A DNA stretch of 14,414 bases from Candidatus Heimdallarchaeota archaeon (GTDB lineage: Archaea; Asgardarchaeota; Heimdallarchaeia; Heimdallarchaeales; Heimdallarchaeaceae): contig DAOVET010000066.1 of the NCBI GenBank assembly GCA_030668825.1, positions 1 through 14,414 on the forward strand, in the 5' to 3' direction. The notes under the pieces were generated by a model. That model worked only from the letters and a program-made list of their open reading frames with translations, was not told where the DNA came from and did no database searches. The position numbers and the translations under genes are program-made. Below, piece by piece: positions 2,139 to 9,338 of the stretch; within the stretch, counting starts at the first letter, position 1; each line of letters begins with the position of its first letter.

Positions 2139-2198
2139 TGGTGGGGCACGGCGGATTCGAACCACCGACCATCTGGTTTCTCAGTTTTGGCTCATAAT
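2139..2198 (-). repeat. Displaced partial tRNA copy (att-like direct repeat): 3' exon with CCA plus the canonical intron
   Basis: 2139-2198 matches 5291-5350 at 55/60 nt (50/53 over the first 53). Followed on the minus strand by a TTTTT tract. Confidence 0.93.
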
Positions 2199-2241
2199 AA
2201 CTCTACAAGCTTAATTACAAAATAGTTTAATTTTTACCACG

Positions 2242-2276
2242 TTTTTATATCATTTTAATCATTTAATGTTAAATGA
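2242..2276 (+). promoter_or_regulatory. Candidate TATA box and inverted-repeat operator for the island ORF
   Basis: TTTTTATAT at 2242-2250, followed by the TCATTTAA-tg-TTAAATGA dyad at 2259-2276. Confidence 0.35.
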
Positions 2277-2323
2277 ATCTGAAACTTTTCATTTTTACAA
2301 CTTAGAGGAAATCAAGTTTCTTC

Positions 2324-5284
2324 GTGGTGATTGAAATTAATCTCAAGGTAAATACACAGAATACTGCGGATAAACATACCAGAATAAAAGAAATCGAAGA
2401 AATGAAAAGAGAAGTACAAGAAGTTCTCCAATTTATCAAAAAAACAAAAAAGAATATAGAAAAGCTCCAGAAACACAATAAAGCAAAATTAGTCGAAGGA
2501 ACAGAAGAGAATTCAGGCCTTGAAACTATCAACTCAAATGAAATACAAATTGTCTGTATTGAATTTGATGATAACCTCTCCTGGGGAGCTTTAGAAAACT
2601 TAACAGAAAGCAAATACAACACTTTACCAGATAATGACAAATCCTTTGTGAAGCTTGTAAATTCATTGTTCTTTCCTAAAATGAGGTCAATTAGTGATAT
2701 TATAAATGATAACAGTAGCCTAAAGAGTTGGAAGGAACACATAAAAAATCTGAGACCAATAATTGAAAACAAAAAAGGAATTCTTTTTGGGGAGTATTTG
2801 TTCAAAGAAAGTTTGAAATTTTCTAAGGAAATCTATGATTCTTATACAAGAAATGTTCTTTTTGGAAAAGGATATGATGAAGATCATAAACGAAAAATTA
2901 CAAGGGAATTTTTCAACAAACATGGTTCGGATATAACTGAAAATATTAGGAAGAAGCATGATTTAACTCATGAAGAAGCTAGAATATTTACCATCTACTT
3001 GGCTTGCATGTCTGATTTTGATAAGAAAGTGTTAGGTTTTGATTATGGATCTATGCATGAGTTCTTCCAGAATGTTTGGATAAAAATAAATCATGATCGA
3101 GATGAGTTTAGAGGAAAACAACACATTTCAAAGGATAGTCAAAAAGTAATTGTTCATTCGGATTTCTCTAGGTTCAAATCCAGCGTATCTTTAGGTTTTG
3201 ATTCTTATTTTACTTTACTTAATCGCAATAAATTCGAATTATGGTTTTCAGAACAAAAATGTGGTGGCAGTTATTCTATATGTAAAAACTTCAAAAATAT
3301 AGGTGATCCTCTACATAAATCAGTTTTTAATCTAGCTCAAAAACGTACTAACAATAAGTTTCAAGATATTCTTCAGAAAATAGGGTTTACAGTACTTCAA
3401 AGCATTGACTTTTCTAATTCTTTGTTTAAACGATATACCTATTACTATGATGCACAGGGTAACAATTTTCTGCAAAAAATGAAATCAACGAAATATCAAC
3501 ATGACCTAATTTTTGGTTTGGAGAGAAATAAGATTCCGAATGCAAAACAATTGACAAGGAAATTAATTAAATCTGCAAAAGACAACCATCGTTTGATAGC
3601 CTTGATGCAGAATGGTTATACACTAAGTGACGAATCGAAAGTAATCAATCATCTAGATATCATAAATAGAAAAGAACAACCCCTTTGTATTATTGGTGAA
3701 ATATTTTCTTTCAAACCTATAAAAAATGAAAAAGGAGATTATATTGTATCAATTGAAGGGTATTCACAGAAATTACTTAAGAAAATACAAAAAACTCATT
3801 CAGTTTTTAATTCAGAATTATACTATCAACTGAACTCTATTTTCAAGTCTATCTCAATAAGTAGAAATTGTAAAATTGAAGAGACTGTAGCTTCTCCTAA
3901 ATACATTGAATCTCTCCTGTTTGCATATAATAAGATCCTTCACGAAATCTATCAGTATCTTATAGATAGCAAAAACTTTACATCATTTGAGATGCTCAAA
4001 GATGGTAAAACGTTTGTATGTAGTGAAATTGCTTCAGAAGATATTTCAAATGTTAAACTATGGCTTGAGAAAAACCAAAAGATGTATTCAGCAATTCCAT
4101 ATACAACGAATTACGTTTGGAAACTACCTCTTTATGGCAAACTAAAGGAAATAAGTCGAAACAATCCTATAAAATTAAGTGAAACCAAGGAACTAGCGTT
4201 CAAAAAACTATTTTCTTATAATGATAAAGAAGTATTAGATTTCCTTAAAGAAATGACTTCTAAAGATTTTTCGGAAGAAGATTTCGAACAAAAAGTAAAG
4301 ACTGATCCTGAACACTCCCTTATATTCAGCATTTTGTATTTGCTAAAAGGGAACACAAGGTTAAAACTTCGTAAGAACCTGTTTGAACAAGGAGATTTAG
4401 TTAGGTCGCTAATATTTCTGGATGAGAAAAGTAATCCAGTAAGAACATTTGGCGATGATAAAAATCTTTCTTCAATGGAAAATCCATATTTAAATATCAA
4501 GATTGACTTCAATGAGATTTTTAGCATAAATAGATTCTTAGATCGAAATGTTCTATCTACATTCCCTATAGCAATAAAGTCAGGAAAATCGTCAACAAGG
4601 CATTCTGAATTGAAATTTAGATTCTGCAGAGTCGATGGAATACGTGCGGGAAAAAAAGGGGTGAAGGCAAGAGAGATGTATATAGAAAGAATAAGAGAGA
4701 TGTTAAGCCATGTTGATGAAATTAACGATGCAATTGAGACATTGTATTCCAAACCTGCTATTTCTTTTAACCTATTAAGAGGTGAAAACAGAGAAATCAT
4801 GATGAAATTATTCATCTACTTGTTCTTTGAATATAATGAGGTTTGGAAAGAATTTAGTAATTCACTGTTGGATTATCTGAAGAAGAATCTCTTCCTATTA
4901 ACAGAGGATATGATTTTAAATAGCTATTTCATAAAATCTGGATGGAATATAACATTCAAGTCTATAAAAAAAATTGAAGGTCAAAAATGGTTAATCCACT
5001 ATATAGTGAATAAAAACTCTGGCAAAGTTTTTGACAGAAAGATAGAGGTGCTACCAGCATTTGCCAATATAAGGTTTAAGAATTCTAGTAAAGAGAGCAT
5101 ACGTGATATTAAGGCAGAGTTAACTTTGTTTTGTAACTACAATCCTTTATTTCTTAAGATTTTGAAGATTTTAGAGTCGGGGATAGCACCACTTGTTTTT
5201 AGCAAAGGTAAAGATAATTTAGATTCAAAAACAAGTTATTCGTGGAAAAATTCAGTAGATTGGATGGAAAAAGTGTGTGTTTAA
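2324..5284 (+). CDS. Large hypothetical protein (986 aa), putative PD-(D/E)XK nuclease-domain protein
   Basis: A 2961-nt uninterrupted ORF in AT-rich DNA, so almost certainly coding. N-terminal coiled-coil-like stretch; candidate motif GSMHE(246)...GFD(293)...SEQK(310-312). Start codon uncertain (GTG 2324/2327 or ATG 2402). Function is inference only. Confidence 0.75.
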   Translation: MVIEINLKVNTQNTADKHTRIKEIEEMKREVQEVLQFIKKTKKNIEKLQKHNKAKLVEGTEENSGLETINSNEIQIVCIEFDDNLSWGALENLTESKYNTLPDNDKSFVKLVNSLFFPKMRSISDIINDNSSLKSWKEHIKNLRPIIENKKGILFGEYLFKESLKFSKEIYDSYTRNVLFGKGYDEDHKRKITREFFNKHGSDITENIRKKHDLTHEEARIFTIYLACMSDFDKKVLGFDYGSMHEFFQNVWIKINHDRDEFRGKQHISKDSQKVIVHSDFSRFKSSVSLGFDSYFTLLNRNKFELWFSEQKCGGSYSICKNFKNIGDPLHKSVFNLAQKRTNNKFQDILQKIGFTVLQSIDFSNSLFKRYTYYYDAQGNNFLQKMKSTKYQHDLIFGLERNKIPNAKQLTRKLIKSAKDNHRLIALMQNGYTLSDESKVINHLDIINRKEQPLCIIGEIFSFKPIKNEKGDYIVSIEGYSQKLLKKIQKTHSVFNSELYYQLNSIFKSISISRNCKIEETVASPKYIESLLFAYNKILHEIYQYLIDSKNFTSFEMLKDGKTFVCSEIASEDISNVKLWLEKNQKMYSAIPYTTNYVWKLPLYGKLKEISRNNPIKLSETKELAFKKLFSYNDKEVLDFLKEMTSKDFSEEDFEQKVKTDPEHSLIFSILYLLKGNTRLKLRKNLFEQGDLVRSLIFLDEKSNPVRTFGDDKNLSSMENPYLNIKIDFNEIFSINRFLDRNVLSTFPIAIKSGKSSTRHSELKFRFCRVDGIRAGKKGVKAREMYIERIREMLSHVDEINDAIETLYSKPAISFNLLRGENREIMMKLFIYLFFEYNEVWKEFSNSLLDYLKKNLFLLTEDMILNSYFIKSGWNITFKSIKKIEGQKWLIHYIVNKNSGKVFDRKIEVLPAFANIRFKNSSKESIRDIKAELTLFCNYNPLFLKILKILESGIAPLVFSKGKDNLDSKTSYSWKNSVDWMEKVCV

Positions 5285-5329
5285 AGAAGTTGGTGGGGCA
5301 CGGCGGATTTGAACCACCGACCAACTGGT

Positions 5330-5350
5330 CTCTCAGTTTTGGCCCAAAAT
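5330..5350 (-). other. Canonical tRNA intron at 37/38 (21 nt)
   Basis: BHB motif: TGG-CTCA-TA|A ... TGAG-AG|A-CCA. Removing ATTTTGGGCCAAAACTGAGAG restores the 7-nt anticodon loop. Confidence 0.88.
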
Positions 5351-5364
5351 TATGAGCCAGTCGC

Positions 5365-5395
5365 CTTTTAGTTAATGGCACGCAGCCATTTGACT
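5365..5395 (-). other. Non-canonical tRNA intron in the D-stem at 23/24 (31 nt)
   Basis: Relaxed BHB: TCG-GTTA-GA|A-GT ... AC-TAAA-AG|G-CGA, with an internal AATGGC/GCCATT hairpin. Removal restores the D-stem GCTC/GAGC. Confidence 0.8.
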
Positions 5396-5452
5396 TCTAA
5401 CCGAGCTGAGCTAGTGCCCCTTTTCTACTTATACTCTCTCATTCTCTTTTTT

Positions 5453-6408: not shown

Positions 6409-6711
6409 TCATTGATTGTCTCTATTAGTTTTCGGTCCAGAAATAATGGGTTCTGCATATTTTGTAACTGATTCAGACAAGGTATTAATTTTTCCTGCAG
6501 AGAATCTATCAATACGATTCTTAGAACAACCATTACATAATCCCGCAGGTAACACTATTTTTGAAACCAGATCTTTTTTTTCTCTACTTATGCACCTGCC
6601 ACATAAATGTTTCCCACATTCTTCACATGCAAACTTTGCGGCTGCTCCACAGTTTAAGCAGATTAATACAATTTCTTCATTCTTTTCTCCTATAACTATC
6701 ACAATAGTCAT
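6409..6711 (-). CDS. Small Cys-rich zinc-finger protein (B-box/treble-clef-like)
   Basis: Four CxxC pairs: CLNC-x7-CEEC-x4-CGRC...CNGC. Start uncertain; the ATG at 6711 is preferred over the track's TTG at 6846. Confidence 0.65.
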   Translation of the reverse strand: MTIVIVIGEKNEEIVLICLNCGAAAKFACEECGKHLCGRCISREKKDLVSKIVLPAGLCNGCSKNRIDRFSAGKINTLSESVTKYAEPIISGPKTNRDNQ

Positions 6712-6930
6712 AGGATTCTCAAGTATTAAACCCCAACACTTTTGCATAAATAGAATAATCACACCAATTATTTTTTTCCTAAAAAAGTATAAAACAGTAA
6801 ATGTATGTGTTATGTGGCATTCTTTACGATCCACAATTTTTTGCAATCTCTAGTACAAGGGTACAAGAATAACGATAAATCAGTTCCAATAACCGAAGAA
6901 AAGTAAAACAAGAAGAAGCATTTTTTGATT

Positions 6931-7794
6931 TTATTTTTCTAATAAGAAATCTGCTTCTTCCGCATTAAAGGAGCTTCTAACGAAAGGCGCTGAAGCTACA
7001 AATTGAAAACCCATCTCATAAGCTTTTTCTTCATACTCCTTAAATAAATCAGGATGAACAAATTCTTCGATTTCTAAGTCAGAACTAGGGGGTTTAAGAT
7101 ATTGACCAATAGTTAGGATGTCACAATCTACTTTTCTAAGATTTTTCATTACTTCCAAAACTTCTTCCTTTGTTTCTCCTAAACCTACCATTAAACCTGA
7201 TTTGGTAAGAAGCTCTGGGTTCATCTCTTTAACCAATTTAAGTAATCTAAGAGACTTTTTGTAATCTGCTTGAGGAGTAACTTTTCTGAAGAGCCGAGGG
7301 ACTACTTCCACATTATGATTAATAATGTCTGGTTTTGAATCGACCACAGTTTTAATGTCTTGTTCTTTGCCTTTTAAATCTGGAATAAGTAGTTCTATTA
7401 TAAGATTCTCGTCATAATCCCTTAACTTCTCTGTGATTTTAGCAAAATGAGCTGCTCCACTATCAGGTAAATCGTCTCTTGTTACAGAAGTAATAACAAC
7501 GTGCTTTAGCCCTAATCTTTTTGTTGCTTCAAGTAAATGGTCTGGCTCATGTTCATCTAAGGGTTTAGGTCTTCCAAAATCTATATCACAGAACTTACAA
7601 TCTCTTGTGCATATGTCTCCCATAACAAGAAAGGTGGCTGTCTTTTTTTCAAAACACTTACCAATGTTTGGACACATTGATTCTTCACATACAGTATGAA
7701 GTTCTAATTTTCTCAGTATTTGTTGAACTTCACGGATTTTTTCTCTATCCATGCTTCCTATTCGTAACCATTCAGGTTTTCGGAGCCTAGTCAT
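6931..7794 (-). CDS. lipA: Lipoyl synthase
   Basis: CEESMCPNIGKC (CX4CX5C), CTRDCKFC (radical SAM), VITSVTRDDL, NHNVE, KSGLMVGLGE, TIGQYL and VRSSF. Confidence 0.97.
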   Translation of the reverse strand: MTRLRKPEWLRIGSMDREKIREVQQILRKLELHTVCEESMCPNIGKCFEKKTATFLVMGDICTRDCKFCDIDFGRPKPLDEHEPDHLLEATKRLGLKHVVITSVTRDDLPDSGAAHFAKITEKLRDYDENLIIELLIPDLKGKEQDIKTVVDSKPDIINHNVEVVPRLFRKVTPQADYKKSLRLLKLVKEMNPELLTKSGLMVGLGETKEEVLEVMKNLRKVDCDILTIGQYLKPPSSDLEIEEFVHPDLFKEYEEKAYEMGFQFVASAPFVRSSFNAEEADFLLEK

Positions 7795-8597: not shown

Positions 8598-9338
8598 ATG
8601 GCGAAATTTCTGACAATTTTACTTGCGGAAGCATCTATCGAATCCTTTCCAGAAGAACTGATGAAGGATATGAATGTGAGAAACTTCTTTTCTAAACTAA
8701 AGAAATCACCATCTGAAGTAATGCTAGATGTAAACTATCATAAGCAACTCATCGGAGGACTACCAGATTTTGAGAGACGAGGAAGGCCTGATATTGTTCA
8801 TTTCACTCTCTTGTCTTGTTTTGGTTCTATTTGTGCTAGAGAGGAAAGACTCCAAGTGATTATTCACACATATGATAACAGAGTAATATATCTCAATCCT
8901 GAAATAAGATTACCGAAAAGCATTGAGCGGTTTAACGGTCTATTCTTGCAGCTGTTTAAGAATGGAAGATCACCTCCAACAGGAGATGAAGTATTAATGA
9001 ATCTTACAAAGAGTTCACTTCCGAATCTTCTGGAAGAGTTACGGCAGAAACATGACATGATAATTGAGTTCAGTGTTAAAGGAGAACAACTTACTTCTCT
9101 TGAATATTCAAAAATAATTTTTGAATCCACAAATCCCTTACTAATATTTGGAGCTTTTCCACACGGAGATATAAAGAATTTACCAAGAGAACTAGTTGAC
9201 AAGAAGTTGGGAATTTATGAAGAAGGTTTAGATTTGTTTGCTGTAATATCTCAAATCCTTGCTAGTCAGCATATGATTGAAGAAGATTCACTTTCAAAAG
9301 AAAAAGGAACTGAAGAACAAAAAATTTCATGGGAGTAA
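8598..9338 (+). CDS. nep1: 16S rRNA pseudouridine N1-methyltransferase Nep1/EMG1
   Basis: LAEASIE, RRGRPDIVHFTLL, IHT, RLPK..ERFNGL and GAFPHGD. ATG 8598 preferred over the track start at 8541. Confidence 0.92.
   Translation: MAKFLTILLAEASIESFPEELMKDMNVRNFFSKLKKSPSEVMLDVNYHKQLIGGLPDFERRGRPDIVHFTLLSCFGSICAREERLQVIIHTYDNRVIYLNPEIRLPKSIERFNGLFLQLFKNGRSPPTGDEVLMNLTKSSLPNLLEELRQKHDMIIEFSVKGEQLTSLEYSKIIFESTNPLLIFGAFPHGDIKNLPRELVDKKLGIYEEGLDLFAVISQILASQHMIEEDSLSKEKGTEEQKISWE

Follow-up and report, generated by a model that had tools for sequence, protein, structure and literature searches.

A one-gene cassette family bounded by duplicated target 3' ends in Heimdallarchaeota-labelled genomes, with no recognisable recombinase

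Asgard archaea are the closest known relatives of eukaryotes, and their mobile elements have barely been charted. Judging by the text of PMC8813620, the nearest published case to the locus described here is that of the aloposons of Candidatus Heimdallarchaeum, large genes that lie against tRNA genes (Wu et al. 2022, PMC8813620). The same text defines an aloposon by tandem genes of 3,000-6,000 amino acids (aa) and four upstream genes, including one for a MinD/ParA-like ATPase, and does not name an integrase as a defining feature. According to passages of a 2024 paper (PMC11529989), aloposons are the only non-viral integrated elements reported for Asgard archaea. The stretch analysed here, referred to as the window, is the entire 14,414-nucleotide (nt) contig DAOVET010000066.1 (C59) from the Candidatus Heimdallarchaeota archaeon assembly GCA_030668825.1 (2.76 Mb, 90.6% complete). 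It carries an island with a single open reading frame (ORF) of 986 codons, ORF986, set between two copies of the 3' part of an intron-bearing tRNA(CAU) gene. The island belongs to a family of one-gene cassettes that occupies four unrelated targets, leaves empty sites in related genomes and moves between lineages. No single-gene cassettes of this kind are described in the literature searched, passages of PMC11529989 included, and the family appears to be previously undescribed to that extent; the supplementary tables of PMC8813620 and PMC11529989, outside the search, may list some.

A repeat search of the window returned a single family with two copies, at 2125-2198 and 5277-5350 (74 nt, 85% identity). 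The 60-nt core, 2139-2198 versus 5291-5350, is exactly intron 2 plus exon 3 of the tRNA(CAU), and a 136-nt query found only two copies in the window's own genome (BLAST). The original prediction had described this core as a 60-bp direct repeat; the repeat is real but not exact, with 55 of 60 positions identical (BLAST 92%). As was also claimed, the copies enclose only the leader of ~125 nt and one 986-aa ORF that stops 6 nt from the tRNA (Table 1). The proximal copy, of the CCAGTT/TTCAAATCC type, is matched by a compensating ACTGG in the tRNA 5' half, unlike the displaced copy. We infer that the proximal copy arrived with the cassette and that the displaced copy is the former 3' part of the tRNA (intron 2 plus 3' exon); without a 5' half, the latter is non-functional. 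The architecture is that of a site-specific integrative element without the defining integrase.

The site was compared across 19 genomes of the same genus in which the tRNA is near full length (19 places among 25 genomes of the genus). Empty sites, proposed as a check by the original prediction, were found in eight of these genomes (G001, G004, G005, G008, G011, G014, G017 and G022), where the tRNA is followed directly by the flavodoxin gene or e2b2 across a gap of ~50-165 nt. ORF986 is present in the same place and orientation in five (G000, G009, G012, G013 and G023), only a C-terminal remnant of it is left in two (G015 and G024), and other genes or a contig end follow the tRNA in four (G016, G018, G019 and G020). 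Displaced tRNA 3' pieces lie beside the ORF, measuring ~65 nt in G012, ~45 nt in G009, 36 nt at locus L075 and ~24 nt in G023, with another at L070. These pieces are shrinking relics, not a working half of a split tRNA. The flank past the displaced piece in G023 and L075 matches the one that directly follows the tRNA at the empty sites of G014 and G004.

Beside ORF986, the working tRNAs of G000, G009, G012 and G013 have the CCAGTT/TTCAAATCC form, compensated by a change on the 5' strand of their anticodon stem. Displaced copies have the CCAGAT/TTCGAATCC form, which also occurs in the working tRNAs of G019 and G024. G000 and G012 differ by two unalignable intron types, and within each genome both repeat copies share its type. 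This pattern suggests that the position received separate insertions, or that gene conversion took place between the copies.

Several rearrangements were observed at this site. A TnpB-like 518-aa gene (PF07282) takes the place of most of ORF986 in G024. At L049 of the same genome (8578-9560), a ~30-nt 5' tRNA fragment without the D-stem intron directly follows the FTR1 gene, and after it come a 102-aa ORF of no known family and the full two-intron tRNA. At L050 in G015 (8892-9292), the tRNA and an 88-aa C-terminal ORF986 remnant lie as one block in inverted orientation compared with the LipA and e2b2 genes that flank them.

The original prediction had allowed that the repeat might be an assembly artefact. 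The same layout recurs in independent assemblies (G012, G009, L075 and L070) and one contig of run X2 spans the entire stretch, so the island is real. Contigs of four runs contained the integrated form and allelic bubbles and no circular joint, empty-site joint or skipping of the island; contigs drop rare forms. No RNA run is among those listed as containing the sequence. A free circle, suggested by the short contigs (3151-3900 nt) that carry the closest proteins, was rejected, as the sizes vary and one member lies on a 400-kb contig. The ORF986 leader is near-identical in G012 and similar at L074; G009 and a contig of run X14 have another sequence in its place. In this last contig, 120 nt at the ORF986 start (window 2267-2388) are swapped for 118 unrelated letters that resemble the alternative leader of G009.

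The arrangement is not confined to one tRNA. Eleven distinct loci of the ORF986 family were examined for flanking repeats, and four of them proved to be single-gene cassettes with a duplicate of the target's 3' end as their border. The first is the tRNA-Met of the window's genus, g1 (repeat of 60 nt at 92%, spacing 3152). The others lie at tRNA-Leu(TAG) in G027 (39 nt exact, or 56 nt at 88%; spacing 2830), at the fumarate hydratase (fumarase) beta gene in G012, G001 and other genomes (128-135 nt, 70-76%; spacing 3090-3120), and at an M3 peptidase gene in G028 (~270 nt, 94%; spacing 2857). The displaced piece in G028 still encodes the last ~72 codons of the M3 peptidase gene, and G030 holds an internally deleted copy of the tRNA-Leu cassette. 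The repeat starts in the anticodon loop in tRNA-Met and in the T arm in tRNA-Leu, both of which are reportedly classic sublocations for integrases. Whether homologues would repeatedly be flanked by duplicated 3' ends had been asked from the outset, and three further unrelated targets answer it. Together with the empty sites and the lack of an integrase, these recurring duplications support the central claim of the original prediction, an insertion of a single gene that lacks an integrase and lies between att-like copies of a tRNA 3' half.

Two more family members adjoin the 3' or 5' ends of tRNA-Arg(TCT) and tRNA-Pro(GGG), and another ends 155 nt from a 16S rRNA gene. Just upstream of the tRNA-Arg(TCT) in G027 lies a LAGLIDADG_3 ORF of 206 aa (L105, 5498-6118); on the other side of this tRNA stand an 803-aa ORF986-family gene and then a DNA polymerase small-subunit-like gene.

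Transfer between lineages is apparent at the fumarase site. Here an ORF of ~910 aa is wedged between the genes for the beta and alpha subunits; over 29 places the site is empty in 19, occupied in 8 and cut by contig ends in 2. It is empty in the window's own genome, where beta and alpha are 4 nt apart on contig C98. The displaced fumarase fragment keeps the C-terminus found in the empty genomes, and the working beta gene has a different C-terminus, which varies along with the insert subtype. Seven of the eight occupied genomes share one boundary of the displaced fragment, and G004a has another. Between G012 and G009 the fumarase alpha subunits are 98% identical and the inserts 55%. Identity to the insert of G012 is 77% in G025, from another genus, and 81% in G001. 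The cassettes move, because the inserts are far more diverged than their flanks and are at odds with host relatedness.

At one fumarase locus (L166/L173; G004, contig C76, 12986-17986) there are two alpha copies 3.5 kb apart; a full beta gene precedes one of them, and just the displaced beta fragment precedes the other. At L135, L137, L126 and L095, ~30-40 nt before the displaced fumarase fragment, stands a short non-coding motif, AAGATTTTAAA. It is kept near the right end of the fumarase cassettes though their ORFs are only ~48% identical, and could be a terminator or a binding site.

ORF986 is a genuine gene under purifying selection, with a ratio of nonsynonymous to synonymous divergence (dN/dS) of 0.14-0.21 against its orthologues. 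Its synonymous divergence (dS) is 0.69 to G012 and 1.16 to G013, against 0.1-0.2 for most flanking genes. DNA identity to G012 is 92-98% in the flanks and 64-90% within the island. Mosaic alleles occur: that of G009 is 100% identical over 4201-5200 and 60% at 2201-2400, and at L076 identity is 97.5% for residues 191-713 and 63% for 719-986. Outside the island, LipA (window 6931-7794) has a dS of 0.5-0.7 to close relatives, with DNA identity down to ~80% at 7001-7200; this region looks like a second recombination patch.

The ORF986 family is small: of the candidates scored out of 5.8 billion proteins, 11 reach E <= 0.001, and a set of 1.84 billion yielded 6 representatives. Profile searches found paralogues in 20 of the 31 genomes of the same taxonomic family, the window's own included. 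Among the 52 other genomes of the class one had a match, on a short contig that is possibly mis-binned. By these searches the family appears near-confined to one archaeal family, represented by Heimdallarchaeota-labelled metagenome-assembled genomes. IMG/VR viral contigs gave 15 pattern matches, of which none is a relative. A near full-length match (E = 0) was seen in a genome of a different taxonomic family that is 69% complete (G081, contig C238, 808-3504), by transfer or through a mis-binned contig. Broken family copies are present in G030, G002, G015, G024 and on contig C116 of the window's own genome, and the M3-linked copy of G028 and the fumarase-linked copy of G012 look the youngest or best preserved. 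The further members in that genome (C45, 45674-47713; C116, 50057-53395; C20, 45163-45582) comprise an intact paralogue of 741 aa, flanked by neither a tRNA nor a repeat, and fragments interrupted by stop codons.

Some relatives form part of much longer proteins. ORF986 residues 213-856 align to residues 3916-4525 of a 4628-aa protein of G025 (hhalign probability 97.6%, E = 3.4e-12), which is encoded in tandem with another giant gene; frames of 2979 and 1872 aa also contain the module. These fused forms came from the genome search; the set of 5.8 billion proteins gave no longer fused form at E <= 0.01, which is weak evidence. In G027 and G030, the two single-contig genomes of the sister genus, the module is found only in frames of ~270-970 aa.

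No known recombinase or transposase was found in any of the four cassettes. That the island itself holds no tyrosine or serine recombinase gene and no integrase fragment, first noted by eye, agrees with searches of Pfam, PADLOC and PHROGs. The window's own genome, at 90.6% completeness, gave no match to PF00589 or PF16795, and only three small resolvase-type genes, outside the island. The target differs from cassette to cassette but the gene family does not, and known recombinases are lacking; on the simplest reading, therefore, the ORF986-family protein would itself direct insertion. The reading that we favour, with a confidence a little below even, is that of a one-gene element driven by this protein, a putative nuclease or recombinase. 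By argument, the third option of the original prediction, that the protein mobilises its own cassette, is thus preferred over a remnant or mobilisation in trans.

Under this reading, a 3.15-kb cassette would have given the tRNA(CAU) a new copy of the anticodon intron and 3' exon, and the old 3' copy would have been pushed 3.15 kb downstream, beside the flavodoxin gene. Each cassette of the family consists of one large ORF986-family gene, a leader of ~80-130 nt and a replacement target 3' end. The protein would be the insertion agent, either as a nuclease that cleaves unoccupied targets and leaves repair to copy the cassette into them, as in homing, or as a new kind of site-specific recombinase. 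E246...GFD293...E310-x-K312 would form its catalytic core. A bolder claim, with an appreciable if minority chance of being correct, is that the ORF986 family represents a novel class of enzymes for DNA insertion, near-confined to the Heimdall-group archaeal family searched. At the same strength, such an enzyme would be a single protein of ~800-1000 aa with a nuclease-like E/D/ExK centre, which would recognise the 3' end of a conserved tRNA or protein-coding gene and install its own gene together with a replacement 3' end, as a minimal mobile element of one gene.

The candidate core was identified from conservation. Alignments of 19 and 22 diverse members contain few conserved polar residues, namely E246, D293 (in GFD), E310-x-K312, K385, E568 and Y593. 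The motif set is kept in 20-21 of 22 members, with E246, D293 and K312 in 20 of 22; E310 is invariant in a 10-sequence alignment, kept in at least 90% of a 19-row alignment and lost in two members. At the motif, an AlphaFold2 (AF2) domain model places a helix (47-65) and three strands (79-84, 100-106 and 109-115), with a predicted local distance difference test score (pLDDT) of 71.5. The order E...D...(D/E)xK on a helix-strand-strand-strand setting matches the pattern expected of PD-(D/E)xK enzymes. The conserved set hints at a putative nuclease, as far as alignments and a predicted model can indicate.

Homology searches gave little beyond the family itself. ORF986 matched no Pfam family at E <= 0.01, no PADLOC family and no PDB sequence profile, and had one weak PHROGs match, to a family of unknown function (E = 5e-4). 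ESM Atlas returned no match for the whole protein or for residues 205-620. Foldseek searches against PDB, with the full and domain models, and against BFVD gave no match at E <= 0.001 and no nuclease among the matches listed. For both models VIA-align reached best Z-scores of 5.3-5.8, to helical hairpins only, again with no nuclease among the matches listed. Identity as a reverse transcriptase, DDE or HUH enzyme or tyrosine recombinase was rejected, as the alignments showed by eye no fitting invariant residues; no P-loop was seen by eye in ORF986.

A number of observations weigh against an insertion enzyme. Seven of the 11 family loci have no flanking repeat, and the module forms the C-terminus of giant proteins (1872, 2979 and 4628 aa), which is not transposase-like. 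A search for terminal inverted repeats in five cassettes found nothing beyond AT-rich inverted matches at chance level. For a recombinase core, repeats of 128-270 nt are long, and they would also be expected from single-crossover homologous recombination, and cassettes lying between conserved genes can spread by flank recombination without an enzyme of their own. For the original prediction, the imperfect repeat (55/60), the age of an island shared across the genus and the lack of a circular junction in contigs of four runs count as adverse or undecided. Two members, the Arg-linked one of G027 and the M3-linked one of G028, lack the motif glutamate, and the latter has the youngest-looking repeat. 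The full-length AF2 model is poor (pLDDT 58) and the domain model moderate (71.5). Support for a PD-(D/E)xK fold or profile was sought in Pfam, PDB profiles, Foldseek and VIA-align without a confirming match, and no catalytic domain was confirmed.

The strongest competitor, which has an appreciable if minority chance of being correct, treats the ORF986-family gene as passive cargo with a fast-evolving conflict or defence-type role or another selected function. Such a cassette would have entered each site once, by single crossover of a small circle with a captured piece of the target or through an integrase acting in trans, and would now spread by recombination in its flanks. Homology-driven insertion predicts long repeats, as observed (60-270 nt), and the shared fragment boundary in seven of the eight occupied fumarase genomes fits one founding event. 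The mosaic alleles and the raised dS of LipA (0.5-0.7) indicate frequent regional recombination, and defence genes typically show such hypervariability between conserved flanks and such patchy presence. The low dN/dS shows that the protein is retained for a function through long residence, and the same module in giant proteins also fits.

This account is less at ease with four unrelated targets that carry the same lone gene family, as an integrase in trans would be expected to fix the site and vary the cargo. ORF986 has no PADLOC match, and its genome as assembled lacks a tyrosine recombinase (completeness 90.6%). The G012 fumarase insert shares 77% identity with one from another genus and only 55% with the insert of the near-identical G009, and flank identity between the two genera is just ~80-86%, which makes homology-driven transfer less easy. 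In addition, the repeat copies of G000 and G012 each share the intron type of their own genome, which suggests two insertions at the tRNA position.

Less probable, and in our view improbable, is that each island is the leftover of a larger virus or plasmid with its own integrase, of which only this gene survived. Duplications of tRNA 3' ends are the usual scars of integrase-borne elements, a start in the anticodon loop or T arm fits this origin, and decay is visible in the broken copies of G030, G002, G015 and G024 and in the shortening displaced copies. However, reduction would have had to leave, in each of four independent cassettes, exactly one gene of the same family with no more than ~130 nt to spare on either side. 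The M3 cassette is young, with repeats 94% identical over ~270 nt, yet it already holds a single gene; no integrase fragment was found in any island, and the family is absent from the matches among IMG/VR viral contigs. It is most improbable that there was no insertion at all, and that the second copy is a separate 3'-half gene of a split tRNA or a local duplication beside an ordinary resident ORF986: the copy does start exactly at the 37/38 intron boundary, the position at which split tRNA genes are divided, and its first 10 nt can pair throughout with the anticodon region of the 5' part, but in relatives it decays to ~45, 36 and 24 nt, is never found without the ORF, has no 5' half or promoter partner found in an own genome with two copies only, is faced with empty sites, and recurs as the same architecture at two protein-coding targets.

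The features of the locus are listed in Table 1. As the original prediction held, the tRNA bears introns; with its two introns removed, the exon/intron parse gives a spliced tRNA of 78 nt with the CCA encoded. Default ARAGORN and Rfam at gathering score both missed this tRNA(CAU) in the window. When applied with introns allowed to the whole 2.76-Mb genome, ARAGORN reported just 25 tRNAs, and the tRNA of the window was unlisted in that run; many tRNA genes of the lineage probably carry multiple introns and are missed by standard tools. Elsewhere in the window, a 145-aa ORF (6409-6846) with B-box zinc-finger matches that are weak and fall below the cut-off (E = 8e-4) is kept between FTR1 and LipA in relatives.

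Table 1. Coordinates in the window of the tRNA(CAU) gene, the repeat copies and the island
Feature	Position	Strand	Remarks
tRNA(CAU) gene, Met or Ile2 type	5291-5420	minus	encoded CCA; tRNA-Met(cat) c[5291,5420] in ARAGORN with introns allowed
tRNA(CAU) exons	5396-5420, 5351-5364, 5291-5329	minus	exon/intron parse and fold
tRNA(CAU) intron 1	5365-5395	minus	31 nt, in D stem
tRNA(CAU) intron 2	5330-5350	minus	21 nt, canonical position 37/38
Proximal repeat copy, attL-like	5291-5350	minus	intron 2 + 3' exon of the working tRNA; CCAGTT/TTCAAATCC type
Displaced repeat copy, attR-like	2139-2198	minus	CCAGAT/TTCGAATCC type, as in the working tRNAs of G019 and G024
AT-rich leader of ORF986	2199-2323	plus	125 nt; TATA-like box near 2241-2250
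ORF986, sole gene of the island	2324-5284	plus	986 aa; convergent with the tRNA, stop 6 nt from the tRNA 3' end
E246...GFD(293)...E310-x-K312 motif set	3059-3259	plus	codons E246-K312; resembles a PD-(D/E)xK nuclease core

To the mobile elements of Asgard archaea these data add a compact, recurring type of cassette that inserts in tRNA and housekeeping genes without a recognisable recombinase. It has been proposed that tRNA introns shield tRNA genes from integration. Here the intron did not protect the tRNA gene, because the duplicated segment includes it. If the ORF986-family protein is indeed the enzyme, it would represent a new and possibly retargetable DNA-insertion activity, and its counterpart at the C-terminus of giant proteins would be the module that places giant-gene elements beside tRNA genes.

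Compared with known systems, the cassettes differ from DDE transposons, insertion sequences and casposons in having no terminal inverted repeats and in their repeats of 39-270 nt, which are imperfect and derived from the target. A parallel is presumably the displacement of 3' ends at polymorphic toxin loci of the Rhs and contact-dependent inhibition (CDI) type, where a new hypervariable 3' end arrives with cargo and the old one is orphaned downstream; those targets are, we assume, toxin genes with immunity genes, whereas here they are housekeeping and tRNA genes and no immunity gene is present. Like free-standing homing endonuclease genes such as phage seg and mob, the cassettes look selfish, lie beside highly conserved genes or wedged between them (fumarase subunits, tRNAs, 16S rRNA), are present or absent among close relatives, include degenerate copies and mosaic alleles, and show divergence limited to the insert and the immediate target. 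Unlike homing endonucleases, the protein has no recognised homing-nuclease domain and is 3-5 times larger, and the cassette brings a replacement 3' end for its target.

The resemblance to tyrosine-integrase islands and SSV/pNOB8-type elements lies in the duplicated 3' part of an intact target with the old 3' end at the far border, in the start of the repeat in the anticodon loop or T arm, and in the empty sites of related genomes. Such islands differ from the present one, which has no tyrosine or serine recombinase, stands in a genome with no tyrosine recombinase as assembled, and consists of a lone orphan gene whose family recurs at four targets with repeats of up to 270 nt. Compared with aloposons, as far as these are set out in the text of PMC8813620, the island has one 986-aa gene between repeats instead of tandem genes of 3,000-6,000 aa, and only a 125-nt leader upstream instead of four genes with a MinD/ParA-like ATPase. 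It shares with them, on the same textual basis, the archaeal group and a large gene directly against a tRNA, and the ORF986 module matches the C-terminal ~600 residues of the 4628-aa tandem giant of G025.

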